DNA of 64,000 bases from positions 32,001 to 96,000 of the IMG/VR virus record IMGVR_UViG_3300042484_001840. One strand, written 5' to 3'. Each line of letters starts with the position of its first letter. Within the stretch, counting starts at the first letter, position 1. Below are positions 45,241 through 63,435 of this stretch, piece after piece. The stretch is from a virus. Made by a program: the position numbers and the translations under genes. The notes under the pieces were generated by a model. That model worked only from the letters and a program-made list of their open reading frames with translations, was not told the origin of the DNA and did no database searches.

Positions 45241-45318
45241 AGTAATCCCTTCGTAGTGGTGTTAGATAAGTATAGCAGGTCTGTGTAAGGTTTACAACCT
45301 TATCATCAGATTTCTTTC

Positions 45319-45615: not shown

Positions 45616-45777
45616 AGTTGTCCTTTTCCGTAGTAGTGGCTTACCAGATAAGTATAGCAGATATGTGTAACAATTACAACATCTAAATAGATATTTATTA
45701 GATTTTTTTTTGCGCCGTAACCTATAGGACAAGTATAGCAGATGGGTGTAACAATTACAACCTATTTATAGATAAAG

Positions 45778-45810
45778 TTATCCACAAAGTTATCCACAGA
45801 CTTATTCACA
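45778..45810 (+). promoter_or_regulatory. Three DnaA boxes at 12-bp spacing
   Basis: TTATCCACA (45778), TTATCCACA (45790), TTATTCACA (45802). Confidence 0.75.
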
Positions 45811-45940
45811 GGCAAAAAATAGGGGGTCATCCGCCACCGTACGAAAAAGAGACACACAGTCCCGTACCCCAAATCGGGGAGCGGGGCTATCAACCTTCAT
45901 GACAAATTCTGTCAATACTTGCAAGCATTAGCCCCGCAAC

Positions 45941-45954
45941 CGAACTAATGTTCG
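45941..45954. promoter_or_regulatory. LexA (Gram-positive type SOS) box
   Basis: CGAAC-TAAT-GTTCG 4 nt before the ATG at 45959. Confidence 0.65.
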
Positions 45955-45958
45955 TAGC

Positions 45959-46324
45959 ATGATCAACCAGAATAAGTGGACAACCCACATCACAGCACTC
46001 CGCTCATATGCGGAACGAACAGGAACTACGCGAGTCCCGCGGACTCATGTAGAAAATACAGAAACAGGTGAAGTGCGCCTCGGCGCTTGGGTGTCGTATG
46101 TTCGTCACCGCCAGCGCAAGGGACACTTGTCAGTTGTGCAGATTCAGGAACTTGCAACACTCCCGAATTGGCACTACGAACCACTGCCCGCAGGACGGAC
46201 AGGCGACTCTGCCCGTGACGCTCTCATTCAAGCACGGTCTGAAGATGGCGCACGAGTCCGTGAACTCTCACAAGAGTTTGGTCTTACTCGTCAGCGGATT
46301 CATCAAATTATTTCAGCCAAGTGA
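45959..46324 (+). CDS. Helicase-associated (HA) domain plus HTH protein
   Basis: W...LRSYAERTGTTRVP...LGAWVSYVR...L; C-terminal RELSQEFGLTRQRIHQI. Confidence 0.75.
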   Translation: MINQNKWTTHITALRSYAERTGTTRVPRTHVENTETGEVRLGAWVSYVRHRQRKGHLSVVQIQELATLPNWHYEPLPAGRTGDSARDALIQARSEDGARVRELSQEFGLTRQRIHQIISAK

Positions 46325-46608
46325 ACAAGATGAATGAGTCATACGCCGAGTGGCAGAGAGAGTTTAGGAAGTCACAACAGGTGAAGCCGAAGAGTGAGAA
46401 AGTGAAACCAAAAGGTTTCGTACTGTTTCTCGCAATGATCTTCTACTCGCTCATAGTGTCTGTGATTTTTTTCGTTGTCGTCACTCTTGCCCTAAGTATT
46501 GCAGGGTGGTCAGACTTCCTGTCTGCTCGTGAAGTGTTCGGTATATGTTTTGGCATCTCTTCACTCAGGGGACTTGACAGAGTTTTCTACGGTAGGAATC
46601 CTTTTTAG
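46321..46608 (+). CDS. Membrane protein
   Basis: Two hydrophobic segments. Confidence 0.55.
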   Translation: MNKMNESYAEWQREFRKSQQVKPKSEKVKPKGFVLFLAMIFYSLIVSVIFFVVVTLALSIAGWSDFLSAREVFGICFGISSLRGLDRVFYGRNPF

Positions 46609-46615
46609 ATATAGC

Positions 46616-46651
46616 AAAGAGCGGTAGGTGATAAACACCTACCGCTCTTTT
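46616..46651. terminator. Bidirectional terminator between convergent genes
   Basis: AAAGAGCGGTAGGTG-ATAAA-CACCTACCGCTCTTT. Confidence 0.85.
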
Positions 46652-46694
46652 GTGAAGCAGAGAGGAAAGGACAAGTAACCCTCTGCTAAGAAAG

Positions 46695-48044
46695 TCAGTC
46701 GTCTAAGTTTCGTTCTTTCCAAACTGACGAGTTCTTGATTTCACCAACAGCGTTAGCCTTAAGTCTCTTGCCTTGCTTGACTTGTTTCAATGCCTTGATA
46801 GCACCTTCAACATCATTAACTTGGTGAATACTGTGCTTAATAACAAGGTTCGCACACTCATCAGTCAGGTTGGCAAAGTTATTGTCGCCCTTGCCATCGG
46901 TAACATAACCATCGCAAACCCAAATGAATGGTTCGCCTTGCTTACGCTTGGCTTGTGCGAAACGAATAGCAGGACCATCAACGCCGTTACCGCCGTTGCC
47001 AGTAGGAACTTTCTCAACAACCTTGCCTCGTTCTGCCATTACCCAAACATTCGGGATTTCCTCAGAACCAACTCGGTGAGAGTAACCAATGATTACGCAA
47101 CCGGGCGCTTCCTCAATAATCTCCCACAAGTTTTCTGTTTCCAAACGCATTGAACCTGATTGGTCAATAAGAACAACACCGCCTCGTCCCTTAGCACGAC
47201 GATCAAAAATGCGTCGCTCAGGGTCTGTCAACATTCGTCCAATGCGACGAGGGTTGCGACCAATGTTAGTAGCAACTCTTTTTCGTCCAAGGTTTCCGTC
47301 AACAGCACGAGGCTTTGGAAGTTCTAATTCAATGAGTCTAGCGAACGCACCAGCGCCTGATTTTGCAATGTTCTTGACATCAGGAATTTCCTCGTTACCA
47401 AACTCATCAGGAGTTCCATCGTTACCTTCAGGCTTTAGCAAACTTTCAAGAAGTCGTGCGATAGGAACGGTCAACTTGTTGAAACCTTGCGGTAGACCAT
47501 TCTCATCCGCCACCGTGGAAGCAACAGCAGGTGTTTTTTTCCATATCTTGGCGAGTGCTTTTTGCAATTCTCGTGCTTGCTTCTCAAACTCAGGATTCGT
47601 TGTCTTGAGTCCTCGTAAGAAGTTTGCACCAGCCTTAGTGCCAGCGACAGCAGGAAGGAAACGAACAACTCCGTTCCAATCTCCGTTCTCGCCAATGATT
47701 TTTCCTGTCTGCGATTCAGAACCGTCTGCTAGTGCGTCAATAGGGAAGCCCTGTTTTGCAACCAACATATTCACACGAAACTCCTCTGCCATCATAAGCA
47801 GGTCAGTTTCAATTCCTAGTGCCAGCATTGCTTCAGGATTCGTTGGCGAAACTTTTGCGTGCATAAGTTCGTGAGCACGAACGACACGAGAAGTGTCGTC
47901 AGCGCCGTACGGTACTCGCATTTTTGCCGCTCGCATTTCTGTCCAAGCGTCACCTCGCACGGGGTTGCCCTCTTGGACTTCCCACGCACGAGGCTCAATG
48001 TCACGCCTGTTGATAAATTCGGGCATTGCTTTCATAACCTGCAT
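46695..48044 (-). CDS. Metallopeptidase-like (HExxH) plus vWA domain protein
   Basis: RAHELMH...EE; MIDAS VLIDQSGSM...GGNG...WVCDG. Confidence 0.8.
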   Translation of the reverse strand: MQVMKAMPEFINRRDIEPRAWEVQEGNPVRGDAWTEMRAAKMRVPYGADDTSRVVRAHELMHAKVSPTNPEAMLALGIETDLLMMAEEFRVNMLVAKQGFPIDALADGSESQTGKIIGENGDWNGVVRFLPAVAGTKAGANFLRGLKTTNPEFEKQARELQKALAKIWKKTPAVASTVADENGLPQGFNKLTVPIARLLESLLKPEGNDGTPDEFGNEEIPDVKNIAKSGAGAFARLIELELPKPRAVDGNLGRKRVATNIGRNPRRIGRMLTDPERRIFDRRAKGRGGVVLIDQSGSMRLETENLWEIIEEAPGCVIIGYSHRVGSEEIPNVWVMAERGKVVEKVPTGNGGNGVDGPAIRFAQAKRKQGEPFIWVCDGYVTDGKGDNNFANLTDECANLVIKHSIHQVNDVEGAIKALKQVKQGKRLKANAVGEIKNSSVWKERNLDD

Positions 48045-48045
48045 A

Positions 48046-48765
48046 TCAAGAAACTCCGTTCACTAAGATTGCGTCTAATACGGACTGATAGTGTTTTCCG
48101 AAAGTTAGGCGTGCCGCCTTCTCCACAGAAACTGTTTTGCGTAGAGTGTCAAACGCCATAAATGCTCGGATAGAGAAACGCCTATCCTTGTCAGCGTCAG
48201 CCGAAGCGGCCGCCGCTCCTCGCAAATCAGGCGAGAGCATTGTCAGAGCGTCAGGGTGAGGCGTGTTGATTCGCACAGCAACGGGAAAGCGGTCTTTGAG
48301 AGCCTGAGGCAACTCACGCATATCCTCAATGTTCGTGGTCATAAACACCGAGAAGCCTTTTTTCGGCTTCAAGATTCGTCCTGTCTCAGGATGTTCCCAA
48401 GAGGCAGATTCCTCACTGTCAAACATCGCAAGTAGTTGCGACATAACATCGCCTGACGCACGGTCAATTTCGTCAGCGACAACTCGTCCGCCGTTGATAC
48501 CGTCGCCTTGCCACGCCTTGATAACAGTGCCATCTTGCCATTTCCAAGTGCCATCGCCTGATGGCTTGAAGTGACCAGTAACATCGGCACTCGTCATATC
48601 CTCGTTACAGATAAGACGGTGAGCACCTGCCGAAACATTGCCAAATGTAAGACCAGCGAATGTTTTGCCCGTTCCTGGCGGTCCGAACAGAATTAGTTTG
48701 TTGATTCCTGAGTCAAGAATGTCGTTGACATCTTGCCAGCATTCGGGGAGATTAGTAGTAGTCAT
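48046..48765 (-). CDS. MoxR/CbbQ-type AAA+ ATPase
   Basis: GPPGTGKT, VVADEIDRA, MTTN, LPQALKDRF, FSIR; paired with the vWA gene. Confidence 0.88.
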   Translation of the reverse strand: MTTTNLPECWQDVNDILDSGINKLILFGPPGTGKTFAGLTFGNVSAGAHRLICNEDMTSADVTGHFKPSGDGTWKWQDGTVIKAWQGDGINGGRVVADEIDRASGDVMSQLLAMFDSEESASWEHPETGRILKPKKGFSVFMTTNIEDMRELPQALKDRFPVAVRINTPHPDALTMLSPDLRGAAAASADADKDRRFSIRAFMAFDTLRKTVSVEKAARLTFGKHYQSVLDAILVNGVS

Positions 48766-48874
48766 AGTTTGTCCTTTGCTAGTAGCGGGTTTTCCCGTGT
48801 TTGATAAGTATACACCCTGTGTGTAGAAATTGCAACTTTATTTCAGAAATTATTTGACATTTTTTTTAGAATGT

Positions 48875-48903
48875 AGTGGCAGGGAGATTTCCCCCCTGCC
48901 ACT
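48875..48903 (-). terminator. Hairpin terminator
   Basis: AGTGGCAGGG...CCCTGCCACT immediately after the 48910 stop. Confidence 0.6.
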
Positions 48904-48909
48904 CACTCA

Positions 48910-49308
48910 TCAGGCGACCTGAGAGATATTGACTACATTCTCAGTGTCGTTGGCGATTTCCGTGACTCGTACTTGGTCGTACTTAGTGACGGTAGTAATC
49001 GCCTCAGCAATATCGCTGGGGATAACGCCCAACTCAACGGCGGACTTGAATTTCTTACCGTCCACTTCAAGTTTGGTAACTTGCTTGAGAACGATAGGCG
49101 AGACAAGTTCGGTCAATGCCTTCAGGTTGTACTTGGGTCGCTCACCATTGACGATGAGAACCTTTTGTCCGTCCACGACATTGAAGTTGAGTCCCTTTTC
49201 AGCGTAGGCAAGTTTCAAGTCTGCCTCTGCTTGGGCTTTAGCCTTTTCAGCATTTTCCAATGCTTGCTTGGCATTCAAGTAGTTGAGAGTGATTTGTGTG
49301 AGATTCAT
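48910..49308 (-). CDS. Hypothetical protein with N-terminal coiled coil
   Basis: Own cassette; YLNAKQALENAEKAKAQAEADLK. Confidence 0.7.
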   Translation of the reverse strand: MNLTQITLNYLNAKQALENAEKAKAQAEADLKLAYAEKGLNFNVVDGQKVLIVNGERPKYNLKALTELVSPIVLKQVTKLEVDGKKFKSAVELGVIPSDIAEAITTVTKYDQVRVTEIANDTENVVNISQVA

Positions 49309-49387
49309 AATTTGTCCCTTTCAGTAGTGGTGTGTATTCATTATACAGGTTGTGCGTAACAATTGCAACCTTATTTCTAAATTATTT

Positions 49388-49615
49388 TCAGAATTCGTAT
49401 TCGTCGCCTGTTGATACCCAACAGATTTCGCCATCTTGAAAACCTTGGCGGTAAAGTTTGCCAAGAACAACAAGTAAGCCGTTAGAGATACTCCCCAACT
49501 TGCTTGTGATGTATTCCTCGGCGGTAGCGTCGGTACTAAACAACTCGTAATTAGTGGCAATGTAATCGCCGTGCATTTCTCCATAAAGAACCGCTTGAAA
49601 GAAATTCGTACTCAT
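49388..49615 (-). CDS. Hypothetical protein
   Basis: Own cassette. Confidence 0.65.
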   Translation of the reverse strand: MSTNFFQAVLYGEMHGDYIATNYELFSTDATAEEYITSKLGSISNGLLVVLGKLYRQGFQDGEICWVSTGDEYEF

Positions 49616-49698
49616 ATTGTGTCCCTTCGTTAGTAATTGCTTGCGGAAATAAGTATATCAGGTGGGTGTATGAATTACAACATTATTACTTAGATTTA

Positions 49699-49764
49699 TC
49701 AGATATTTTTCAGAACCATAGATAATGTTCCGAGTAGGTATAGACCAACGAATAAGAGTCCCAT
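49699..49764 (-). CDS. 21-aa hydrophobic microprotein (not in ORF track)
   Basis: MGLLFVGLYLLGTLSMVLKNI directly after a full promoter/leader cassette (49765-49822). Confidence 0.55.
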   Translation of the reverse strand: MGLLFVGLYLLGTLSMVLKNI

Positions 49765-49947
49765 AGTAATCCTTCTGTAGTAGGTGAAATATAAGTATAC
49801 AGGTTGGGTGTAAGAATTACAACCTTATTTATGTTACAGAATGATTACAATAATTGTAACAGAAATGTTATATTAAAATGTTGTATTTGTTACACAGAAG
49901 TGCTATACTTATATTCGTAAGTTACTACTACCGAAAAGGACAAAACT

Positions 49948-50145
49948 ATGGAAGCGAAATGTTGCGCCGATAAGCCGATGCTAGAAGTTTATGGTTACGA
50001 GGGTTGTGCGGATTGTTACGATAAATGGTGCGAGGGCGAACTTATCGCCTATGAAGATTTACGCCGTGCAGAGTTCGCAAACTCTTGGGTGATTGGTGGC
50101 GGTTACGCCTCAGACGCTGATCTCGCTTACGAACAGTTTGCGTGA
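49948..50145 (+). CDS. Hypothetical Cys-rich protein
   Basis: Own cassette, divergent from 49764. Confidence 0.65.
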   Translation: MEAKCCADKPMLEVYGYEGCADCYDKWCEGELIAYEDLRRAEFANSWVIGGGYASDADLAYEQFA

Positions 50146-50298
50146 TGGCGAGTCCCACTGCTGAAAGGCGGTGGGACAACCACTTAGTCCCGCTTGGGCA
50201 GTCTCATCCGCCACCGTCATTCATTGGGAGCGCGCGTGCGGGGCTATCTCGGTATACCCCACCCCTAAAGCCCCGTATCCCCCAAAAATTTCTGGGGG

Positions 50299-50330
50299 TT
50301 ATCCACAGGCTGGGGATAACCTGTGGATAA
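50299..50330. promoter_or_regulatory. Three DnaA boxes (one with a mismatch)
   Basis: TTATCCACA 50299, TGGGGATAA 50311, TGTGGATAA 50322. Confidence 0.7.
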
Positions 50331-50340
50331 CTTTGACCCG

Positions 50341-50517
50341 TCAGCAAGCCCCCTCACAATACTCGCAAGTGGTCTCGTCAACTTCGTGACAGCCATTCCA
50401 GCCTTCGTCAACTTTGTTGTTGTCGGCGCAATACTGTATGCGACACCAGTCAGAACAGAAAACAATTCTGTCAACGATGTCGCCACTCTTATCTTCAATC
50501 AAAAGTAGGTGAGCCAT
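50341..50517 (-). CDS. 58-aa Cys-rich protein (not in ORF track)
   Basis: MAHLLLIEDKSGDIVDRIVFCSDWC...GWNGCHE...CEYCEGAC after a cassette. Confidence 0.7.
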   Translation of the reverse strand: MAHLLLIEDKSGDIVDRIVFCSDWCRIQYCADNNKVDEGWNGCHEVDETTCEYCEGAC

Positions 50518-50647
50518 TATTTTGTCCCTTCGGTAGTAGTGCCTTACCTTATCTATTATAGCAGGCGGGTGTAGAAATTACAACTCGATTTGTTAAATTT
50601 ATTTAGAACTTTGGGGGCGGACTTTCGCCCGCCCCCAACGCTCATGA

Positions 50648-50935
50648 TCAGGCTTCGCACTCGCAGTCGTAGTGGAGTTCTTCGCACCAACCGCAGTGGT
50701 CACGATCCCACTCTTCGTCTTCGTCTTCTTCGTCCTGAATGTCAAAAGACACCCAAGCCATGACGGTACGAAGCAAGTGGTCGTAATCGCCAGCAGTGGC
50801 GTTCTGAGTGAACTCAGCGATTACTTCCCGTGATACGCCGTGATTACGGAGCGCACCACAAACTCTTGCGATAATGCTGAACGCATTACCGTCCTGCCCG
50901 ACGAGCAGAACCGAAACTTCAGGATACTTAACCAT
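50648..50935 (-). CDS. Conserved phage protein
   Basis: LVGQDGNAFSIIARV...ATAGDYDHLL; own cassette; hairpin 50611-50638 follows. Confidence 0.75.
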   Translation of the reverse strand: MVKYPEVSVLLVGQDGNAFSIIARVCGALRNHGVSREVIAEFTQNATAGDYDHLLRTVMAWVSFDIQDEEDEDEEWDRDHCGWCEELHYDCECEA

Positions 50936-51108
50936 AATTTGTCCCTTCGTTAGTAGTTTTTCCTTACCTGATAAGTATAGCAGATAGGTGTAACAACTAC
51001 ACCATTGTAGAGCGTGTCATTTGTCACATAAGATTTATTCGTAAAAGTGTGTAAATGCTACACCCACCTGCTATAATATATATATCACCTACTACGAAAG
51101 GAAAAAAT

Positions 51109-51441
51109 ATGATTTGGAAAGCAAAAGCCTCCGACATTATTGACCACCTTGTTTACTCAGGGGCAGACACCTATGAGTGGTATCACGAACTCACCGAAAC
51201 CAAAGACGGACAAATTGTCTGTACGATGGAAACGGGCGAGTACGACGATGAGTCTGAACCGTTGACAGCGAGTGTTGCGTTCTCCCCCACTCACGCCTTG
51301 ACAGTCGCCAATGCGATTATCAAGGGACAGGGAGCGGGTTGGCGCACCGTTCAGTCAGCAGTCGCTAATGACGACTTTGACTCCGATGCCGCGGACATCG
51401 TTCTCCAGCACATCGTGCTGAGCGACTTGGTGTTCGGCTGA
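51109..51441 (+). CDS. Acidic hypothetical protein
   Basis: Start 51109 after a cassette; ends DAADIVLQHIVLSDLVFG. Confidence 0.7.
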   Translation: MIWKAKASDIIDHLVYSGADTYEWYHELTETKDGQIVCTMETGEYDDESEPLTASVAFSPTHALTVANAIIKGQGAGWRTVQSAVANDDFDSDAADIVLQHIVLSDLVFG

Positions 51442-51479
51442 GACTTCAGGGCGGGGGAGGGAAACCTCCCCCAAGACCC

Positions 51480-51523
51480 TGTGGATAACCTTTTCCACAG
51501 CCTGTGGATAACCCTGTGGATAA
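51480..51523. promoter_or_regulatory. Four DnaA boxes
   Basis: TGTGGATAA 51480, TTTTCCACA 51491, TGTGGATAA 51503, TGTGGATAA 51515. Confidence 0.78.
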
Positions 51524-51638
51524 CTTTCCCGATAGCCCCGTATACAAAGTGCGGGTGCGGGACTGTCACGATAAATAGTCGTGGAAATTCTTGAATTGAA
51601 AAAACGGGAAGCGGGGCTAACAAACTAAATAGCAGGGG

Positions 51639-51806
51639 TCAAGCCCCTGCCACACTAGTCACTCGGTCCACGAGAACCCGCAAATCCAACAGAATGTCTG
51701 TCATTTTGCCCGCCTCGGCAATACTGACTCCCCGCAAATCACGGAGAGTCTCGTCAATGAGGTTATATATTTCCTCGGTTGGCGTGAGTAAATTTAACTG
51801 ACTCAT
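51639..51806 (-). CDS. 55-aa hypothetical protein (not in ORF track)
   Basis: MSQLNLLTPTEEIYNLIDETLRDLRG...; overlaps the stop of the upstream gene by 4 nt with a GGGG RBS. Confidence 0.55.
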   Translation of the reverse strand: MSQLNLLTPTEEIYNLIDETLRDLRGVSIAEAGKMTDILLDLRVLVDRVTSVAGA

Positions 51807-52195
51807 ACTGTCGCCCCTTCCTTGATCTTGGCTAGTTGTTCGGCACGAATTGCGTTTACTTCCTCGGCTGAGAATACCTTACCGAACACGCTCAACATGG
51901 TACGAATGTCGTCGTCCACGCCCGTAGTGTTACCTTCCTCGTCGTACCCTGCGATAACAGCAGGTCCGACAAGTCGGTAACCTTCGCCAGCCAAAGTAGA
52001 AGCGAACTCGTTTAAGGCGAAGTCAGAACGGAATAAACCTTCCTCGTTCAACCACAAGTCAAGACCGTTCACCAATTGAACGCTCTCAATGAGTCCCTGA
52101 ACGAGACTCTGGAGAAACTCCAAAGACTTTTGACCTTCGGGCTTCTGAACAATGTACGGCGAACCGTCTAAATCGTTGATGTAAATGACTTGCAT
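51803..52195 (-). CDS. DUF3846-like protein
   Basis: LEFLQSLVQGLIESV...LWLNEEG...N..AS...LVGPAVIAG.D.EG. Confidence 0.75.
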   Translation of the reverse strand: MQVIYINDLDGSPYIVQKPEGQKSLEFLQSLVQGLIESVQLVNGLDLWLNEEGLFRSDFALNEFASTLAGEGYRLVGPAVIAGYDEEGNTTGVDDDIRTMLSVFGKVFSAEEVNAIRAEQLAKIKEGATV

Positions 52196-52287
52196 AATTA
52201 GTCCCTTTCGTAGTAGTGTTTATATATTATAGCCTTGTGGGGCAGGAAAGTCAAATCCTGCCCCACAATTATTTCATTTCTTTAGGC

Positions 52288-52476
52288 TCAGACCGTGACC
52301 TTGCGTGCCTTGCGTCGCGCGCGGACATTGCGGATCTCTGCGCGAAGTGATGCGGTGAGTCCAGCCTTGATCCAAATGGCGGTTATCAAAGAAGCGTTGA
52401 TCATAACCAGCAAGCCTCTGATGACTTCCAAAGTGTAATCCGAGAGAGTGAAGTTGATAGTGTATTGAGCAATCAT
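52288..52476 (-). CDS. Small membrane protein
   Basis: Own cassette; TM plus basic tail. Confidence 0.6.
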   Translation of the reverse strand: MIAQYTINFTLSDYTLEVIRGLLVMINASLITAIWIKAGLTASLRAEIRNVRARRKARKVTV

Positions 52477-52630
52477 TTTGTGCCTTTCGTAGTAGGTATG
52501 AGATAAGTATAGCGACTTTGTGTAACTTTTACAACCTTCTAGTAAGTGTCATTTGTCACACTACTCAATGTTGTAATTTCTACACAGACTCGCTATAATA
52601 TACTTGTACACAACTACTAAAGGAGAAAAT

Positions 52631-52864
52631 ATGCTCAGCACCAAAATTGGAAATAGTGACTGGTACTTCGTTCTCAACAACGGAGCGACTCGCAAGTTCT
52701 CAGTTCAGTTTCTCGGCAGACGACGAGGAGACGACAAGCGAGACATCGTGACATTCCGTGAAGGTGCGCCACACTACGAGGCGTACACGACCGAGACGGG
52801 CAAAGCAATTCCGAAGTTTGTCGCAAAAGCAATTTGGGAAGCAATGGAAAAGTCCCCCGCCTGA
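52631..52864 (+). CDS. Hypothetical protein
   Basis: Start 52631 after a cassette. Confidence 0.65.
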   Translation: MLSTKIGNSDWYFVLNNGATRKFSVQFLGRRRGDDKRDIVTFREGAPHYEAYTTETGKAIPKFVAKAIWEAMEKSPA

Positions 52865-53045
52865 CAAGCGGGGGAAACCCTTTAGCCCCGTTGGATATAT
52901 GCGTGCGTGGAAAGTTTTGACGCTTCTCTTCCGCCACCGTCAATAGTAGGGAACACAGGGGCGGGGCTGTCACCCCTAAATAGGGGTGTTCAGGGGGCGT
53001 ACCTCACGATACGCCCCCTTCGGGTGGCCAAACTCGCCACTCGCC

Positions 53046-53492
53046 TCACTCCTCGTTGAACAAGTCGTTCAGCATTTGCGTTTCTAAGTTCCGCATACTA
53101 GAACTTTCCACGATGTCACTAACCATCTTGCCTAGGTCAAAGCCCGCTTCTGCGAGTTCTGCTAGAAGTTCCTCAGACGGTTCTTCCTCAACTTCGGCGT
53201 AGTGTTGTTGCTTCTCGTCGTCGCTCATCGCTTGGATACTGCGGTCATAGCCAACCCAATTCCCAATGTTTGAGTACTCGTCTAGTTGCTCGTGAGTAAG
53301 ATTGAACTCACGCATAACACGCTCGGTCATGACCGATGAAGGTATGCCTTCACCTAACTCCACGCTTCGCTTAGCGTTCTCTATGAGAAGGCTCGTACGG
53401 TAGTTACAAAGCCGTACGAAGTGGTCAGGGTAGTAGAACGATACTCCATTGGGGAATTCGCTATCAGGGAAAAAATCGGACTTGGTAATCAT
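53046..53492 (-). CDS. Acidic hypothetical protein
   Basis: GAAAGGA RBS before 53492. Confidence 0.65.
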   Translation of the reverse strand: MITKSDFFPDSEFPNGVSFYYPDHFVRLCNYRTSLLIENAKRSVELGEGIPSSVMTERVMREFNLTHEQLDEYSNIGNWVGYDRSIQAMSDDEKQQHYAEVEEEPSEELLAELAEAGFDLGKMVSDIVESSSMRNLETQMLNDLFNEE

Positions 53493-53508
53493 TAGTAATC
53501 CTTTCGGG

Positions 53509-53736
53509 TCAGAGGTCTGGTAAGTAATCAAATTCTACGGTTGTCTCCCAAGAGATATCTTTCATTTCCCAACCGTAGTGGTAGCGAAGGTTCTTGGTTG
53601 CCATGTCAATGGCGACTTCTGTTAGTTGGTCATTATCCAAGTTGGTGAATGACGGCTCCTCTAAATCTATCTCAACAAAGTGAGTCAGAGAAAAGAAATC
53701 TCCAACAAAGGTGACATTACAACTTGCGTGCTTCAT
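53509..53736 (-). CDS. Hypothetical protein
   Basis: ACTAC..CGAAAGGA leader. Confidence 0.6.
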   Translation of the reverse strand: MKHASCNVTFVGDFFSLTHFVEIDLEEPSFTNLDNDQLTEVAIDMATKNLRYHYGWEMKDISWETTVEFDYLPDL

Positions 53737-53779
53737 AGTAATCCTTTCGGTTGTAGTTGGTATGGGGTGAAGTTGGGGG

Positions 53780-54295
53780 TCAGACCCCCAACTCCTCGGC
53801 TAGTTGCTTCTGAGTCTTACCTAGGTGCTTCTTAGCGCACACAGGGCCGACTCCGACACGATGACCGTAGCCATCCTTGTCGTCTAGTTCGGCACTACAG
53901 AACAAACAAACGCCCGTACGCACGCCGTACTCCATAGCGACGAGTGCGGTGACCTTTTCGGTTGGCGAGAGCAGGGAGATCGCTCCACGCTCGTAAATCC
54001 AACCGCTTTCGCCACGACGCATTGCGTAGAGATTGCCACCTTCGGATTGCTTCACCTTGTAGATCAAGTGACCGACGAGGTAGAAACCGACTTCGGTAAC
54101 CTTCTCGGCAGGCTTGACTTCCGTAGCAGGCTTAGCCATAACCTTGGCGAACATTGAACGGATAGCCTTTTCTTGCGCTTCGCTCAATGCGCCCTTGTTC
54201 TCAAAAGTCTTAGCGATTGAGATTGCGAACGCACTCCACTGTTGGGCTTTCGCCCATTCAATGACGGAAGTAATCGGGGTCAATGTGGTAGTCAT
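53780..54295 (-). CDS. DUF6011-like Zn-finger protein
   Basis: GVCLFCSAELDD...GVGPVCAKK; own cassette. Confidence 0.75.
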   Translation of the reverse strand: MTTTLTPITSVIEWAKAQQWSAFAISIAKTFENKGALSEAQEKAIRSMFAKVMAKPATEVKPAEKVTEVGFYLVGHLIYKVKQSEGGNLYAMRRGESGWIYERGAISLLSPTEKVTALVAMEYGVRTGVCLFCSAELDDKDGYGHRVGVGPVCAKKHLGKTQKQLAEELGV

Positions 54296-54370
54296 AATTT
54301 CTCCTTAGTAGTAGTGGTGATAAATACAAGTATACAGCAGGGGTGTATGAATTACAACCCCTGCCTCGGC

Positions 54371-54493
54371 TCACCAAGTTGGTGGCCGACCGATGAAGTT
54401 GCCATCGGAGTCGTAGCAACCATTGTCGGGGTCAAGGTAGCCCTGAGCGTCGTAGCGGTCAGGATCGTTGTAGTCGTCATGATCGTTATTCAT
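54371..54493 (-). CDS. 40-aa Asp-rich microprotein (not in ORF track)
   Basis: MNNDHDDYNDPDRYDAQGYLDPDNGCYDSDGNFIGRPPTW after a full cassette. Confidence 0.65.
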   Translation of the reverse strand: MNNDHDDYNDPDRYDAQGYLDPDNGCYDSDGNFIGRPPTW

Positions 54494-54575
54494 AATTTCC
54501 CCTTTGTAGTAGTTGGTATTTAATAAGTATACAGGCTTCGTGTAAGAATTACAACCTTATTCGCAAGATTATTGG

Positions 54576-54591
54576 TGTGACATTGGTCACA
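54576..54591. promoter_or_regulatory. CRP/GlxR-type site
   Basis: Perfect TGTGA-CATTGG-TCACA; related sites at 51013, 52545, 55269, 56857, 59460, 60612. Confidence 0.55.
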
Positions 54592-54816
54592 GGCCAGTCG
54601 TCTGGGGGCTTGGGGGTCGTCGGCCGGGTTTGGGGAGTTTGGCCACCCTGCTTCGGAGGCATTTAGTCCCGCTTGGTTATGGCGAGTTTCCCGTGTTTGT
54701 CGCAAGCCCCGCAGGTGAAAACGGCAAAGCGGAGATGCGGGGCTAGTGGTGGTTTTCGGATTAGCAATTATATGTAAGGGGTGGGGCAGGGTTTCCCCCG
54801 CCCCACCATGCCCCTG

Positions 54817-55185
54817 TCACCACACAGGAGTAAATCGTCGCTCGTCGGCGTTGTAAGCGTGTTCGTAGTGAGTGCCTTTATTCTCAAGGTTACGAACTTC
54901 AATTTCTTGAACGAGACGCTTGGCAATTGCGCTGAAGTTCAAGCCATCAGTGCCTGCCACCATTCGCTTGCGTCGGTGGGCGATAACCGAAGCGGTAACC
55001 AATTCCGAACGCTTGAGTGCGTTCTCGTCGGCGTACACCTTCGTTACTGCGTCGGCTACTTGTTGGTAATCCCAACAGGCGTTGTACATTCCGCCGAGCA
55101 GTGTAATTAAATCAAATCGTGACGGAAGTGAATAGTAATCGCCCTGTAATTTGGTGGGCTTATTCTTATGCCATTTGGTAAGCAT
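54817..55185 (-). CDS. Hypothetical protein
   Basis: Own cassette. Confidence 0.65.
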   Translation of the reverse strand: MLTKWHKNKPTKLQGDYYSLPSRFDLITLLGGMYNACWDYQQVADAVTKVYADENALKRSELVTASVIAHRRKRMVAGTDGLNFSAIAKRLVQEIEVRNLENKGTHYEHAYNADERRFTPVW

Positions 55186-55358
55186 ATTTTTTCCTTTCGT
55201 AGTAGTGGTTATGAATATAAGTATACACCTTCTGTGTAGGAATTACAACTTCTAGCGTCAAATAATTGTGTGACAAATGACACTAGGCAGAACTGTGTAA
55301 ATGCTACACCCACCTGCTATACTTGTATATGTAAGGAAAACCTACCGAAAGGAATACT

Positions 55359-55541
55359 ATGAATAACGCAGAATTGTTCGTGTGGAATGAAATTGAAGAG
55401 GGCTTCATTCGTGAGTATGGAATTGAAGACGGTATACGAGTGTGCGATTACGCACAGCGTGTATATTACAGGAGTGGCAAGATGACCCTAGCCGTCAAGG
55501 CGGCAACGGAATGGGCTAGCAGAATGAGAATGGGAGTCTGA
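55359..55541 (+). CDS. Small protein, paralog of 57375-57554
   Basis: FVWNEIEEGFIREYGIEDGIR...AV..A.EW. Confidence 0.7.
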   Translation: MNNAELFVWNEIEEGFIREYGIEDGIRVCDYAQRVYYRSGKMTLAVKAATEWASRMRMGV

Positions 55542-55542
55542 T

Positions 55543-55743
55543 ATGGCAAGTGTTTCAGTAAGCGGTGTCGCCCTACTAGGTAAGACAACGGCAGTAGGTT
55601 CTCATATAGATTTACGAGAACGCCTAGCCTACCTAGAGGGCGTTCTCAGCGGGCTAGAGAACGCTGGAGTAGTTCTGCCTACGGGAGACTACGAGACGCT
55701 CTACAGGACGCTCAAAGATACCAAAGAATTTCTTTACGAATAA
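55543..55743 (+). CDS. Hypothetical protein
   Basis: GGAG RBS, coupled. Confidence 0.55.
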   Translation: MASVSVSGVALLGKTTAVGSHIDLRERLAYLEGVLSGLENAGVVLPTGDYETLYRTLKDTKEFLYE

Positions 55744-55808
55744 CTTGACATTCCTACACCTAGGGTGTATAATATACCTATAACGAAAACTAACCGAAAG
55801 GACTACTA

Positions 55809-55979
55809 ATGGCTACCGTTCCCAACTACGAAATTGAACGACTAAATGAGTTTGTCGCAGAAATTGAAATTGCGATTAAGGAACACGGTTACGCATATGC
55901 GTACGGTGCGACAATGTTCAACTTGAAGTCTTTGCTCAACCAAATTACCCGTGAGCCAGCACCTTGGGAGAACCTATGA
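55809..55979 (+). CDS. 56-aa hypothetical protein (not in ORF track)
   Basis: MATVPNYEIERLNEF... after a consensus TTGACA-17-TATAAT cassette. Confidence 0.7.
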   Translation: MATVPNYEIERLNEFVAEIEIAIKEHGYAYAYGATMFNLKSLLNQITREPAPWENL

Positions 55980-56098
55980 AATACAAATGGAATGAACTAG
56001 AAAAGTTCGCCTTCGCCACGCAGAAGTTGCGGGCGAACCGAATTCCTGACAAGAAAAAAGAGTCAAACCGAAAAGCGTGTAGGAAGCGAGACTACTGA
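55976..56098 (+). CDS. 40-aa basic protein (not in ORF track)
   Basis: MKYKWNELEKFAFATQKLRANRIPDKKKESNRKACRKRDY; ATGA overlap and GGAG RBS. Confidence 0.55.
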   Translation: MKYKWNELEKFAFATQKLRANRIPDKKKESNRKACRKRDY

Positions 56099-56364
56099 GT
56101 CTCGCCAACTACTCCGCTAGCCCCGCCCTCATCTTGAGCGTGCGGGGCTTTTGCTTTCCATAAACCAATTGGACATTCTGCATTGGACAGGGTTGTCTTC
56201 AATGGCATGAAGCACCCGCAAATTCCGCAAGTGCTTAGACGCTTACTGAAGTGGTCACAGCCCCGACAGATGTCTAAGCGTTCTTTTCGTTCCAAGCGGG
56301 TCAAGCGGGGGATTGACGGGCGTAGTAAATCCGTGAATTGCGCAGGAGATTGTTCTTCGTTCAT
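56092..56364 (-). CDS. DUF6171-like Cys-rich protein
   Basis: RLDICRGC...TCGICGCFMPLKT...CPIGLW. Confidence 0.7.
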   Translation of the reverse strand: MNEEQSPAQFTDLLRPSIPRLTRLERKERLDICRGCDHFSKRLSTCGICGCFMPLKTTLSNAECPIGLWKAKAPHAQDEGGASGVVGETQ

Positions 56365-56434
56365 ACGCTAATTGTATCCACGGAAGTATACCTAAGGGGT
56401 ATGACATAGTTGCCCATGCCATACCCCTTGATTA

Positions 56435-56788
56435 TCACAATTGGATAAACCTACCCAATTTGAATATCTGCTGGATAAGTGCGCCCCATGAGCAGTAGTA
56501 GTGCATGACTACCAATTTCTTGCTCGCTGGGTAATACTTGCCCGTACCCCAAGTATCTGTCTTAGTGGGGTTCTCGCCTTGATTAACAGCATACGGTTGA
56601 TTGAGTGCCACTCCGCAACAGGAACAGGGTAGTGAACCAAATTCGCCATCAAGGGCTAAGTGGATCATCTGCATGTTGCGCTTACGCTTCATGCCTTGGC
56701 GGAGTGCTTCAAGCGTGTCTGCTTCGGCGTATGCCTTAGCACCGTGTTCCCACGGTTTACGGTAAGCGGGTTTAGTAATGGTAGTCAT
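56435..56788 (-). CDS. Hypothetical Zn-binding protein
   Basis: Start 56788 after a cassette; CSCCG...HYYC. Confidence 0.65.
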   Translation of the reverse strand: MTTITKPAYRKPWEHGAKAYAEADTLEALRQGMKRKRNMQMIHLALDGEFGSLPCSCCGVALNQPYAVNQGENPTKTDTWGTGKYYPASKKLVVMHYYCSWGALIQQIFKLGRFIQL

Positions 56789-57187
56789 TAGTAGTCCTCT
56801 CAGTAGTTGTAAATATAAGTATACAGGAGAAGTGTAACAATTACAACATTGCATAGTATGACAATTGTCACTATCGGTATTGCGCCTAATTACTTATGAG
56901 TATATTATACACGATAGGTGAATGAATGTCAAGTATTTACACAAAATAATTTATTATATTTAGTTTTATAAATAATATCTATAATATATAAATGTCTTCC
57001 GCCACCGTCAATAGTAGAAGCGCTTAGCCCCGTTCATTTTTTGGCAAATTTATATCATTTCTACCAATTTCATATCAGTTCGGGTGCGGGGCTGTCAGCC
57101 TTCTGAAATACTTTGTAATACAAGGTGATACAGGGAATTACTGCGTGCGGGGCTAATAGTTTTCTTTCCCGCCAATCAAGTCGCCCC

Positions 57188-57292
57188 TCATTCCATCAAA
57201 TCTTTAAAATCATCCCAAAACAGAGCGACAATAATTCCCGCAACCATTCCAAGCGCCCCAAGTCCAATCAAAAAGTCGTTTAGCAATTCCAT
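57188..57292 (-). CDS. 34-aa single-TM microprotein
   Basis: MELLNDFLIGLGALGMVAGIIVALFWDDFKDLME after a cassette. Confidence 0.65.
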   Translation of the reverse strand: MELLNDFLIGLGALGMVAGIIVALFWDDFKDLME

Positions 57293-57374
57293 AATTTCTC
57301 CTTTGTAGTAGTTGGTTACATAGACAATTATACAGGAGGGGTGTGGCAGAGTTTCCCCTGCCACCCCCAAGCGA

Positions 57375-57554
57375 TCAGTAGACCGCTCGCTCTCGGCGTT
57401 CCCACTCAATCGCATTGGCGACTGCCTTGGCAATCCCCTTGGCGGTTTGGCTATGAGTACGACTGGCTCGTTCACCAATTCGCAACCCTCGCTCTAACCC
57501 GTACTGGCGGATTAGGTTTTCGTGGATCTCATCCCATAAGAATTTGGTATTCAT
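57375..57554 (-). CDS. Small protein, paralog of 55359-55541
   Basis: MNTKFLWDEIHENLIRQYGLERGLR...AVANAIEW. Confidence 0.7.
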   Translation of the reverse strand: MNTKFLWDEIHENLIRQYGLERGLRIGERASRTHSQTAKGIAKAVANAIEWERRERAVY

Positions 57555-57642
57555 ATTTTCTCCCTTAGTAGTGGTGACTTCCTTACATATATAAGTATAC
57601 ACAAGGGGTGTGGCAGAGTTCCCTCCGCCACGCCCCCAGCGA

Positions 57643-58008
57643 TCAGTAATCCTCATCCTCATCGTCCTCGTCCTCTTGGCTGAGAAACTCCTCATCGTCC
57701 ATCCATTCGCCCTGCCCGATGAGACTCACGAAACCTGCGTTGGGGTTCTCGTGGTTGGTTGTGACTGCGTTGATGAACTTCAGACCACACGACTCGTCCC
57801 ACCAAACTTTGAGCGTGGTGAGCATTTCCTCAGAAGTGCCCTCAAAAGTGCGGTCATCGCAGTGAACGCCGTTATAGTTCTCACGGAACCAGCCCGCCTG
57901 CTCCTCGTCCATTGCGAGGTAGATTTTGTGGCAACCGTCCCAAGCGATAAGGAGAGCGCCCTCAAGAGCGTCCTCAACTGGGTCAAATAAATTGTCTAAG
58001 GTTTTCAT
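57643..58008 (-). CDS. Acidic conserved phage protein
   Basis: IAWDGCHKIYLAMD...WWDESCGLKFI; own cassette. Confidence 0.7.
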   Translation of the reverse strand: MKTLDNLFDPVEDALEGALLIAWDGCHKIYLAMDEEQAGWFRENYNGVHCDDRTFEGTSEEMLTTLKVWWDESCGLKFINAVTTNHENPNAGFVSLIGQGEWMDDEEFLSQEDEDDEDEDY

Positions 58009-58098
58009 AGTTTGTCCCTTTCAGTAGTTGTTGCTTACTTAGTAATTATACACAAGGGGTGTGGCAGAGTTTCCTCCGCCACCCCCTGACGCTTGAGA

Positions 58099-58314
58099 TC
58101 AGATCTCAGCCTCCCACATACGGCAGATCTCCTTGGTGATATGGAGACCCTGAACAAGTGCCAAGCCAATGGCTCGCTTTAGTTCGTTGGGCGTTGCCAA
58201 GGGGAGGTAGTTGTCAATGTCCTCCCAAGCCTTGAGACCAGCAAGGATTTCCTCGTAGGTCTTGCTGGCATAAGCCTTGTCATTACTAGTTGGGAACTTG
58301 GTTTCGGTAGTCAT
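58099..58314 (-). CDS. Hypothetical protein
   Basis: Own cassette. Confidence 0.65.
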   Translation of the reverse strand: MTTETKFPTSNDKAYASKTYEEILAGLKAWEDIDNYLPLATPNELKRAIGLALVQGLHITKEICRMWEAEI

Positions 58315-58549
58315 AATTTGTCCTCTCGGTAGTGGTTTTCCTTACCTAGTAAGTATACACCTTGGGTGTAGCACTTACACCATTATTCGTGTTACAGAAT
58401 GGTTACAGATTTATGACGGAAATGTAATGGAGAGCCAAAATGCCGATATGGGCAATGTGTCACCATTACACGCTAGAACGCCCCCTAAGCGCCTGACCCC
58501 CCTCTCCGCCCCTAGCACCCAATCCTGAGCCTGAAACGGCTGAGAGACG

Positions 58550-59147
58550 ATTTCCACAGATTTATACACAGCCTCTGAGCAGGGGAAATGTGGCAAAACC
58601 CCAGCGTGAGGGCACTTTTTGCATAACCCCTGCTAGTGGGCTTACACACGGTGGTTATCCACAGAAGTGACCACTTACCACCAGATTTCACCAGTAGTTA
58701 TCCACAGGGGTGTGTATAAAGTTGGGGATAAGGTTATCCACAGGATATCCACAGGGTGTGGATAAAGTAGTTGTACTGTGCAAGTAAGTTATCCACAGGG
58801 GGTGTGGATAAAGGTGTGGATAAAGTTTTCCACAGGGTGTGGATAAACCTGTGGAAAAGATAGTTGTAGTCTACAAGTAAGTTTTCCACAGGATGGGGAT
58901 AAAGTTGTGGATAAAGTTATCAACAGGGCTGTGGATAAAGTTGTGGATAACTTTTTGCTCTGTAAAAAATTCTCTTCCGCCACCGTCAAAGTTTTAGAAA
59001 CGAGGGGGCGGGGCTAGTCCCCTACTAACAAGAATTGAAAAATCTGAACTTATAAAAAAAAGCATTAGCCCCGTTTGTTTTTTCAAGAAGCATTAGCCCC
59101 GTTTGTTTTTTGAGTTTTCCACAGGTTTTTCCACAGGCTGTGGATAA
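58550..59147. repeat. Large DnaA-box array (oriC-like or DnaA-titration locus)
   Basis: 16 perfect TT(A/T)TNCACA boxes plus 5 one-mismatch boxes in 58550-58950, and 3 more at 59115-59147; 11-14 bp spacing within blocks. Confidence 0.85.
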
Positions 59148-59179
59148 GGGGGTAGGGTTTGACCCCCACCCCCACTCAA

Positions 59180-59377
59180 TCACCAAGGGCACTCGTTGTG
59201 TCCTTTTCTCATTATCCATCGCGATTTCATTTCGCTGACGAATCGGTAGGCAACTTTGTGCGGACTCCATAAGTAAGCGAGTCGCCTGATGCCTGTCATG
59301 TCCTCAGCCTCGTCCAATTCGCAATTGGCGGGCATGTAAAGCGAACCGCTCCACTCTAGTCCTTTGAGCCATTTCAT
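59180..59377 (-). CDS. Hypothetical protein
   Basis: Start 59377 after a cassette. Confidence 0.65.
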   Translation of the reverse strand: MKWLKGLEWSGSLYMPANCELDEAEDMTGIRRLAYLWSPHKVAYRFVSEMKSRWIMRKGHNECPW

Positions 59378-59555
59378 ATTTTCTCCTTCTAGTAGTTCCT
59401 TACATATACAAGTATAGCAGACTTGTGTAACCATTACAACATTTATCAACAAATATCTTTGTGACAAAAGACACGCCGTACAATGGTGTAAACTCTACAC
59501 CCTCATGCTATACTTATGGAGTACGGAAAACCTACTACTAAACAAGGGAGACAGT

Positions 59556-59834
59556 ATGAAGTTCATGACCGAAACGCTAGTGACAGACACGCTCTGCTAC
59601 GAAGTAATTGCCGAGACAGCCAAGACGCTGACAATCAGGTCAATGGCACGAGGCGAGCAGGTGTACACCGATGGCGCACCATTGCCAGTAATCGGACTCC
59701 GAGCGATTTCTGATCCGAACGGAGACACCAAAGTGGTGAGACTCCGTAAAGACGGAACTTACCGCAAGGCTCAGGGATACAACCCCCTGCGGTTCACCGA
59801 GACTCCGATCTTCTACACGGACTACAAGTACTGA
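59556..59834 (+). CDS. Hypothetical protein
   Basis: Start 59556 after a cassette; YEVIAETAKTLTIR. Confidence 0.7.
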   Translation: MKFMTETLVTDTLCYEVIAETAKTLTIRSMARGEQVYTDGAPLPVIGLRAISDPNGDTKVVRLRKDGTYRKAQGYNPLRFTETPIFYTDYKY

Positions 59835-60008
59835 GAGATGGGCGGGGGGCGAAAGCCCCCCCCCCCCCAGTTATCCACAGGGCTGTGGACAACTTTGCGC
59901 GGAAAATCCGTGCGGGGCTATGGGCTTCCCGACGCGCCCGCTAGCCCCGTTGCTTCAAAATCTGGAGACTCACGGTATGGGCAGAACCCCGCAGGGCTTA
60001 GCGCCCCC

Positions 60009-60296
60009 TCAATCGGGGACGCTTGCCCATGCTTCGGCTTCGGTACTGAACTCGCCAAACTCGGAGACGGTACGAACTTCGGTCAGGCTTACGGCTTGAC
60101 GGACAGTAAAGCGACGCTCGCCGTCCCAAGCGAAGCCGTTAGGGTCTTGCTCAGAAGTGACAAAGTAGCCATCGCCGTAGATATCTCCGTGAACCCTTGA
60201 CGCAAACCAGCGCATAGTGCTATCGGAGAAAAAGTGGTAGCCAGCGTCTTTACTAGCCTCCACGAACTCACTTAGTGTCATGGTTGAAATACTCAT
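60009..60296 (-). CDS. Conserved phage protein
   Basis: AGYHFFSDSTMRWFASRV...YFVTSE...RRFTVR...FGEFST; own cassette. Confidence 0.75.
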   Translation of the reverse strand: MSISTMTLSEFVEASKDAGYHFFSDSTMRWFASRVHGDIYGDGYFVTSEQDPNGFAWDGERRFTVRQAVSLTEVRTVSEFGEFSTEAEAWASVPD

Positions 60297-60373
60297 AGTT
60301 ATCTCCTTAGTAGTTGATGGATAAATTATACCGAGGGGGTGTGGCTCAGTTCCCCAAGCCACACCGAAGCCCC

Positions 60374-60541
60374 TCAGAACCGAGGTAGTTGGCTTAGGAC
60401 ATAATCCTCGGCACGGGTGATGTACTTAGCCGTAACAGCGCCTCGTGCTTTTCTATAAGCGAGGTCATAGATACGGTCAGCAACTTCAAAGCCATGCTTA
60501 CGGATAAGAGCCTCGTAAAGTTCATTTTCTGAGAATGTCAT
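60374..60541 (-). CDS. Small protein, distant paralog of 55359/57554 family
   Basis: NELYEALIRKHGFEVADRI...A.R. Confidence 0.6.
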   Translation of the reverse strand: MTFSENELYEALIRKHGFEVADRIYDLAYRKARGAVTAKYITRAEDYVLSQLPRF

Positions 60542-60636
60542 TATTTTCTCCTTAGTAGTGGTGACAGATATAAGTATACACCCGCCGAGTGTAGAAACTA
60601 CAACCATACGGTGTGTCTCTTGTCACACTACCTAAC

Positions 60637-60772
60637 CGAACAGGTGTTCGCACGGAGACACCGAACAAGTGTTCCCCGAACGGGTGTTCGTACCGAACAA
60701 GTGTTCGCTTGATAAAAATACGCACCGACGCATAAAAATACACCGAACAGGTGTTCTACGAACAGGTGTTCG
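60637..60772. promoter_or_regulatory. Array of six LexA (SOS) boxes
   Basis: CGAAC-N4-GTTC(G/C/T) at 60637, 60662, 60677, 60694, 60744, 60759; TTGACA follows at 60774. Confidence 0.8.
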
Positions 60773-60858
60773 CTTGACAAATGTAGCCACATTACGGAGG
60801 GAATGTGGACACAATAAAAGCACAGAACTAGAACCGATAGCCCCGCTAGACTAAAGAT

Positions 60859-63426: not shown

Positions 63427-63435
63427 GGAGCAAAA

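Follow-up and report, generated by a model that had tools for sequence, protein, structure and literature searches.

The stretch of DNA analysed here (the window) is 64,000 bp long and corresponds to bases 32001-96000 of a 145,042-bp phage record of IMG/VR with a completeness rating of 98%. Between 45.2 and 60.8 kb it contains a block of short genes, most of them provided with their own copy of one promoter cassette, and among these genes lie the arrays of DnaA boxes and LexA boxes that are the subject of this text. Coordinates without a prefix are window positions, whereas those preceded by "genome" are positions in the record; G000 is the genome of this phage, and G002, L012, L072 and similar labels designate related assemblies or contigs. 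A first-pass annotation had described this region as a decoy panel for five host regulators, namely DnaA, LexA, CRP, OmpR and RNA polymerase. This panel reduces to DnaA and LexA.

Against a background of dinucleotide shuffles, the segment 45778-60780 carries 20 perfect copies of the DnaA box TTATCCACA where 0.15 are expected, and 40 boxes with at most one mismatch where 3.4 are expected (standard deviation 1.8, maximum of 7 in the shuffles). The excess of DnaA boxes, initially put at about 36, is thus real. The whole genome contains 31 perfect copies (1.3 expected), and all of them but two are found in the early region. Six clusters account for 34 of the 40 boxes, and two more, with 3 and 12 boxes, lie outside the window at genome 101746-101778 and genome 103794-103968 respectively, so that eight clusters are distributed over 26 kb. 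The clusters within the window, and the spacer that follows the largest of them, are these:

45778-45810, + strand: three tandem DnaA boxes (two perfect) with a 12-bp period.
50299-50330, unstranded: DnaA-box triplet, one forward and two reverse, flanked by hairpins.
51480-51523, unstranded: group of four DnaA boxes, three of them perfect, enclosed by two convergent terminator hairpins.
58655-58950, unstranded: main DnaA array of 19 boxes (11 perfect).
58951-59114, unstranded: spacer from the main array to the next cluster, with motif B, three copies of motif C and a 40-mer of 80% A+T at 59023.
59115-59147, unstranded: DnaA-box triplet, two forward and one reverse.
59871-59892, unstranded: convergent pair of DnaA boxes directly after a G+C hairpin.

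The recurring unit is a triplet in which one box faces two tandem boxes, with gaps of 2-5 bp. In the main array, 18 of the 19 boxes form six triplets, which are paired into three blocks with palindromic spacers of about 22 bp between them, and the whole array sits in a stretch of about 770 bp devoid of any credible gene. The block spacers (58766-58788 and 58859-58881) are palindromes of the type TTGTA-N3-TACAA and resemble both the -35 region of the promoter cassette and a palindrome located beside the composite array of the relative G006, which suggests that the element might include a site for a third protein. The clusters at 50299, 51480 and 59871 are placed between the terminator hairpins of convergent genes, with no promoter nearby: the first one between the 3' ends of genes 49948-50145 (+) and 50341-50517 (-), the second one between terminators that follow 51055-51441 (+) and 51639-51806 (-), and the third one between genes 59505-59834 (+) and about 60009-60297 (-). 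An open reading frame (ORF) that covers this last pair (59838-60200, +) is probably spurious. The cluster at 59115-59147 lies downstream of the 3' end of gene 59180-59377 (-), and that at 45778-45810 is found 18 bp upstream of the -35 of the cassette promoter 45732-45760 (-).

The same segment, 45778-60780, contains seven LexA boxes of the Gram-positive type (GAAC-N4-GTTC), as many as the first-pass annotation gave, against 0.38 expected, and five full CGAAC-N4-GTTCG 14-mers against 0.03 expected. Six of the seven boxes belong to one array:

60637-60772 (136 bp), unstranded: array of six LexA-type boxes, mostly 15-17 bp from start to start.
45941-45954, unstranded: single LexA-type box CGAAC-N4-GTTCG, also present in the near-identical phage G002.

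The array lies between a divergent cassette promoter near 60570-60606 (-) and the gene of an SNF2/HARP helicase (60859-62766, +), and its last box abuts a TTGACA hexamer. The single box precedes by 5 nt the ATG of a 121-aa gene (45959-46324) whose product shows weak helix-turn-helix similarity, and it is 130 bp away from a DnaA cluster. Altogether, the genome carries about 50 DnaA boxes and 9 LexA boxes.

Some of these positions recall transcriptional control, in which DnaA (as an indicator of the replication or growth state) and LexA (as an indicator of DNA damage) would act as transcription factors on nearby early promoters. The cluster upstream of promoter 45732-45760, the LexA box that overlaps the start region of the helix-turn-helix-like gene and the TTGACA hexamer before the helicase gene would fit this role, as would a composite array situated about 120 bp upstream of a strong promoter in the relative L072. 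There is also a precedent, since host LexA serves as a repressor in phage GIL01 (PMC4551915). However, most of the clusters have no promoter in reach, sets of 6-8 operators or 19-21 boxes are far above regulatory need, and in the relatives the arrays have no constant gene neighbours; a sensor of this kind is therefore considered improbable. GIL01 itself is alike in that it carries SOS boxes on phage DNA, which in its case are bound by host LexA, but it is temperate and small, its few boxes lie on the lysogeny promoter, and it uses the co-repressor gp7 (PMC4551915, PMC6182141), whereas here the boxes occur in arrays of 6-8, are paired with DnaA boxes, and no tyrosine-type integrase (PF00589) was found in the genome.

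With respect to the phage itself, genome 1-11341 and genome 133702-145042 constitute a direct repeat of 11.3 kb and 99.6% identity that spans large structural genes. This degree of identity indicates a unit genome of about 133.7 kb and an assembly that closes into a circle. IMG/VR lists the record as linear, but the repeat probably arose as the wrap-around of a circular or permuted assembly, and a real terminal repeat is less likely. Brevibacterium phage Cantare and Gordonia phages GMA6 and DalanDe have capsid proteins with 48-50% identity to that of this phage, and the best matches of its primase-helicase and of its SNF2 helicase are proteins of Arthrobacter phages. Judging from these similarities, this large and uncultured phage probably belongs with the actinophages and has an actinobacterial host. 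A search of a protein atlas for the host yielded viral clusters only, and no close phage was found at the DNA level in INPHARED. The three cultured capsid relatives (Cantare, GMA6 and DalanDe) show no enrichment of DnaA boxes and hence provide no cultured model.

A near-identical phage, G002, is represented by a second long assembly (129 kb), which closes into a circle through an overlap of about 190 bp between its ends. Its helicase is 99% identical to that of this phage, and in the part of the early region that was sampled, which surrounds the arrays outside the window, identity is 86-96%. G002 keeps every cluster, but its main array contains 21 boxes instead of 19, its last array 10 instead of 12, and its LexA array 8 boxes instead of 6, all the array differences being insertions or deletions of whole units.

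More distant relatives carry compact versions in which both types of box are close together. For instance, L012, whose helicase is 59% identical, possesses four LexA boxes and, 18 bp further on, four DnaA boxes; its LexA array is 5.4 kb away from the helicase gene. L072 (reductase 75% identical) contains the composite array mentioned above, made of three tandem DnaA-DnaA-LexA units with 3-bp gaps. In L080, which has only two weakly similar genes in common with this phage (33-38% identity), one LexA box is followed after about 50 bp by four DnaA boxes (three perfect and one degenerate) and, after about 55 bp more, by another LexA box. G006 and G007, whose DUF932 protein and primase-helicase are respectively 83% and 74% identical to those of this phage, share four LexA boxes, four perfect tandem DnaA boxes and two further LexA boxes, one of which abuts the last DnaA box; this element is located in gene-free DNA and is followed by a palindrome like the main-array spacer described above. 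The gaps between LexA and DnaA boxes range from 0 to 55 bp in these five relatives. No arrays were seen in the DNA available for the fragments L009, G004 and G008, and in L009 there is no LexA array in the 1.4 kb upstream of the helicase gene. On these sequence comparisons, the DnaA-LexA composite is a recurrent, movable and accessory element of the lineage, which is not tied to the helicase gene.

These observations bear out, for DnaA and LexA, the claim that the numbers of sites exceed what local control needs: three clusters are enclosed by convergent terminators, the position of the LexA array in relatives is independent of the helicase gene, and the copy number of the arrays differs between near-identical phages. 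The survey of related phages that had been proposed recovers the pairing of DnaA and LexA boxes in at least five diverged relatives and in phage T5.

In four relatives (L012, L072, L080 and L157, the latter being G006) the composite element comes within 0.2-0.9 kb of a contig end. The G007 sequence continues for 4.9 kb beyond the element, so that these ends are probably assembly breaks, a genome terminus nearby being less favoured.

At least 119 IMG/VR contigs contain tandem pairs of DnaA boxes, and six or more boxes per 300 bp occur in about 20 of them, indicating that phage-borne DnaA arrays are not rare, and the array of this phage is the densest among the contigs with tandem pairs that were examined. 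Only 3 of the 119 contigs show LexA boxes near the DnaA clusters, and a few homologues of genes of this phage are present in two of the three; the pairing of both types of box thus appears to be lineage-specific and not universal. The forward-reverse-reverse triplet was also considered as a general plan and was rejected, since 15 all-tandem, 5 convergent and 1 divergent arrangements were counted in this set of contigs, which had been selected for tandem pairs.

The best known counterpart is found in coliphage T5. According to a preprint, all T5-like phages have eight conserved DnaA boxes in the repeats of the injection stop signal, which are organized as IRC-spacer-IRD and IRD'-spacer-IRC', and the T5 origins lie at other places (Davison, bioRxiv 10.1101/866236). 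The T5 sequence (NC_005859) also contains two near-consensus LexA boxes of the Escherichia coli type, at 6213 and 9411 in the left terminal repeat, in DNA that is injected first. One of them is 1 nt away from a run of DnaA boxes with a 12-bp period and the other one is 10 nt away from a perfect DnaA box; the second box, at 9411, falls within the annotated injection stop signal. No paper naming LexA boxes in the T5 repeats was found in a literature search that excluded subscription journals.

T5 and this phage are therefore alike in several respects. Both have non-coding, repeat-rich DNA among short early genes; in both, DnaA boxes are paired or in tandem about 12 bp apart in gene-free DNA, in T5 without being tied to a known origin; and both T5 and the lineage of this phage place a LexA operator of the host's own type beside the DnaA boxes. 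They differ in lineage, in the phylum of their hosts and in scale: T5 has 8 DnaA and 2 LexA boxes in a defined terminal repeat, whereas this phage has about 50 and 9, with eight clusters in 26 kb.

The form of the LexA box also bears on whether the 9-mers and 14-mers merely resemble the host consensus and are in fact operators of phage proteins. Many ORFans and other repeated motifs are found in the region, and phage DNA-binding proteins certainly exist. However, there are many exact matches to two consensus sequences that are unrelated to each other, and no domain IV of DnaA is encoded by the phage. The LexA boxes are moreover of the E. coli form in T5 and of the Gram-positive form in this lineage, as binding by host proteins predicts, and this speaks against look-alike operators. 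Operators for phage proteins are accordingly very improbable, and the host DnaA and LexA proteins very likely bind these sites, as far as the match to their consensus sequences can tell.

The reading that we favour, with a probability of roughly 0.4, is that the arrays represent a cis-acting, non-coding composite docking element for host DnaA and LexA, of the type present in T5 and strongly amplified in this phage. According to this proposal, DnaA and LexA dimers of the host would bind to the phage DNA on its entry, before any phage protein exists, and would build stable nucleoprotein blocks that act mainly in cis. Such blocks could hold, pause or anchor the early region, as has been proposed for the T5 injection stop signal, and could insulate the convergent transcription units next to them. 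As each genome brings about 50 DnaA and 9 LexA sites, both proteins would probably also be sequestered while the genome is amplified, as a secondary effect. The docking element is favoured by the close adjacency of DnaA and LexA boxes, which is conserved in compact elements, by the parallel with T5 and by the promoter-free pockets in which clusters are found.

Several facts weigh against it. In this phage the LexA array is 0.7-1.5 kb away from the DnaA clusters and not adjacent to them. Both long assemblies close into circles and so show neither physical ends nor an order of injection, which makes the analogy with the first-step DNA of T5 a tentative one. Eight clusters, with 19-21 boxes in one array, seem more than pausing or anchoring would require, and the role of the T5 element is likewise a proposal. 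Lastly, the kinship with actinophages is based on a capsid identity of 50%, and the metagenome-assembled genome (MAG) bins that hold the capsid relatives disagree, as they span three different phyla.

The same numbers could also be explained by the trans-acting role of the first-pass annotation, limited to two proteins, in which amplifying phage DNA would soak up DnaA and LexA: loss of free DnaA would stop new host initiations and leave host polymerase for the phage, and loss of LexA would switch on the SOS response without damage. This proposal is in accordance with about 50 DnaA boxes (31 perfect) and 9 LexA boxes per genome, with non-transcribed pockets that would favour the occupancy of the sites, with the lack of a recognisable polymerase in the phage, and with a copy number in flux (19 versus 21, 12 versus 10 and 6 versus 8), as expected for a dosage trait; the patchy distribution among relatives marks the arrays as accessory. 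Chromosomal clusters of DnaA boxes restrain initiation in E. coli (datA) and Bacillus subtilis (PMC3245932). The E. coli datA locus and the six DnaA-box clusters (DBCs) of B. subtilis are likewise high-affinity clusters outside the origin that bind DnaA stably (PMC3245932), but they are host loci of about 5-10 boxes that tune the host cell cycle, whereas the arrays described here are phage-borne, denser and paired with LexA boxes.

However, in the relatives the units of 4-6 DnaA and 3-6 LexA boxes are small for titration and more ordered than it would require, T5 destroys the host DNA within minutes and still keeps the pairing (bioRxiv 10.1101/866236), and a multicopy DnaA-box cluster failed to correct over-initiation in B. 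subtilis (PMC3245932). In addition, no paper on phage DNA as a DnaA or LexA decoy was found in the literature search (subscription journals excluded). The ordered compact units of the relatives and the adjacency of the boxes in T5, outside its origin, fit a nucleoprotein element acting in cis better than a bulk sponge, which we regard as rather unlikely.

A catalytic variant of the trans-acting role is suggested by the orientation of the boxes. A DnaA-reactivating sequence (DARS) is defined by a set of three DnaA boxes, of which box I has the orientation opposite to that of the other two (PMC6868365), and about 10 triplets of this phage follow that plan, box I facing boxes II and III. The core of E. 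coli DARS1, as read from the bioD-uvrB spacer of strain K-12, shows the same triplet plan. The gap between boxes II and III is 3 bp here (2 bp in two triplets), with the same plan in DARS1, and that between boxes I and II is 5 bp in DARS1 and 3-5 bp, mostly 3-4 bp, here. DARS1 is about 300 bp away from the LexA box of uvrB. However, DARS elements are known only from E. coli and close relatives, and L072 and G006 use plain tandem boxes instead of DARS-type triplets; besides, the triplets have been multiplied by duplication and are not independent of each other. The likeness, which is one of layout, is therefore taken as a lead only. It is likewise doubtful that the arrays are translation-independent effectors, either by soaking up DnaA and LexA or by catalytically resetting the nucleotide state of DnaA through DARS-like triplets.

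The gene content of the phage is relevant to another explanation, namely that the arrays are one or several DnaA-dependent origins, at which host DnaA would open the DNA and bring in the host replisome together with the phage primase-helicase. The phage encodes a primase-helicase with Toprim and AAA_25 domains, ThyX, a class II ribonucleotide reductase, a DNA methylase and the SNF2/HARP helicase, and no match to the Pfam polymerase families DNA_pol_A, DNA_pol_B or DNA_pol3_alpha was found across its genome of about 134 kb (98% complete). No phage-encoded DnaA domain (domain IV included) and no tRNAs were found in the genome, and an Rfam search of 44000-64000 gave no match. The early genes are almost all ORFans with respect to Pfam and PHROGs, and no candidate partner protein emerged from them.

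Some local arrangements also recall an origin: the main array is followed by the 40-mer of 80% A+T and then by a second cluster of boxes, about 80 bp of A+T-rich DNA precede the 12-box array beyond the window, and in G006 short direct repeats come after the four tandem boxes, a layout that resembles iteron plasmid origins. Among the local arrangements seen, the one most like an origin is that at genome 101620-101745, where two T-rich direct repeats of about 45 bp and an A-run stand directly before the 3-box triplet.

However, eight clusters in 26 kb are too many for origins, and three of them lie between convergent terminators. Whereas oriC-type origins occupy one or a few loci of conserved architecture, the arrays differ by whole-unit insertions or deletions between near-identical phages. 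Sixty per cent of the boxes are perfect consensus sequences, whereas regulated origins mix strong and weak sites; the LexA boxes interleaved with the DnaA boxes have no known role in origins, and the counterpart in T5 is not the origin of that phage (bioRxiv 10.1101/866236). In addition, the most A+T-rich 40-mer of the early region (56954-56993, 95%) has no DnaA box nearby, and the minimum of the cumulative GC skew is located about 45 kb from the arrays, although skew follows gene direction in this genome and was for this reason rejected as a locator, since it points to no origin. An origin function is thus possible but on the unlikely side, and the docking element continues to be our preferred explanation.

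The remaining motifs of the panel belong to the promoters of the phage. The following features were annotated:

45269-59514, unstranded: span of the early promoter cassettes, 18 copies, with -35 TTGTAA, 17 nt that include a conserved TACAC, and -10 TATACT.
55269-55283, + strand: "CRP-like" 15-mer, midway between divergent cassette promoters.
54576-54591, unstranded: the sole canonical TGTGA-N6-TCACA palindrome of the region.
49833-49849, + strand: "OmpR-type" 17-mer direct repeat, 11 nt upstream of a cassette -35.

The cassette also includes a conserved 5' untranslated region (UTR) and a ribosome-binding site, and it has only one further copy in the genome outside 45269-59514. From 28 to 41 nt after nearly every promoter there is a ribosome-binding site followed by ATG and an ORF of at least 40 codons, the exceptions being four upstream tandem duplicates and the promoter at 59486. 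The region is thus laid out as one promoter per gene, as in a phage early region, and this layout does not require the promoters to be decoys. A generic sigma-70 scan gave 27 hits against 19.5 ± 4.8 expected. The more than 20 sigma-A promoters initially reported do exist, but they had been mis-described, since they are copies of the phage cassette plus about five consensus promoters.

The seven CRP-like sites of the same annotation do not stand as such: apart from the single canonical palindrome, they are five copies of one 15-mer with a poor right half and a fixed place within the promoter cassette. Four copies (51014, 52546, 55269 and 59460) are exactly between divergent cassette promoters and the fifth one (60613) is upstream of the cassette at 60606. 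Palindromes of the form TGTGA-N6-TCACA with up to two mismatches number 14 against 7.2 ± 2.7 expected, one of them being perfect. A set of CRP/GlxR operators was therefore rejected, because the palindromes are not in clear excess and the 15-mer is built into the cassette. The OmpR-type repeat is a real 17-mer with a second copy at 58391-58407, likewise 11 nt upstream of a cassette -35, but its assignment to OmpR found no support and was dropped. The CRP-like and OmpR-like motifs and the promoters are thus the phage's own early promoter architecture, as parts of duplicated modules. As fixed parts of promoter-UTR-gene cassettes they are accounted for by local gene expression, and their numbers do not point to CRP, OmpR or RNA polymerase as titrated targets.

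Two further features accompany the cassettes. A unit of about 53 bp, with six copies within 54756-60366 (e.g. 57316-57368), combines a G+C hairpin with a TATAAT-like hexamer and looks like a terminator fused to the promoter of the next gene. The 5' UTRs of the cassettes (e.g. 54298-54328) contain a conserved leader with CTACTAC just upstream of the ribosome-binding site, which on the opposite strand reads as a short run of the trinucleotide of bacterial DnaA-trio elements. The leader motif is probably a translation signal, and its likeness to the DnaA-trio may be due to chance.

Other repeated motifs were observed beside the arrays. The 8-mer CGGGGCTR has 33 copies in the early region, on both strands, from window 40078-64000 on to genome 103996, where 1.0 are expected, and none elsewhere in the genome. 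It often forms inverted pairs 20-70 bp apart, usually beside DnaA clusters, and its 7-mer core is enriched in L012 (11 versus 1.1 expected) and G007 (7 versus 1.5). The motif TCnTCCGCCACCGT has seven copies, all on the + strand, where 0.04 are expected (45823, 47499, 50200, 52923, 56991, 58969 and 39964). Several of these copies have CGGGGCTR about 30 bp after them, and three are within 70 bp of a DnaA cluster. Both motifs, together with three consensus promoters, are also found in the 333-bp gap that contains the A+T-rich segment 56954-56993.

As to the meaning of these results, two unrelated groups of large lytic phages place DnaA and LexA sites adjacently, each one with the version of the LexA box of its own host, and this convergence between T5-like coliphages and a probable actinophage lineage argues that the pairing has a function. 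It offers a comparative handle on a 40-year-old puzzle, the role of the DnaA-box repeats at the T5 injection stop signal. With about 50 DnaA boxes and no recognisable polymerase, this phage is also a natural test case for phage DNA as a sink or modulator of the initiator. If the arrays were origins, this would be a large lytic phage that replicates through host DnaA; if they were translation-independent effectors, the phage would gain control of host initiation and of the SOS switch with no protein of its own.

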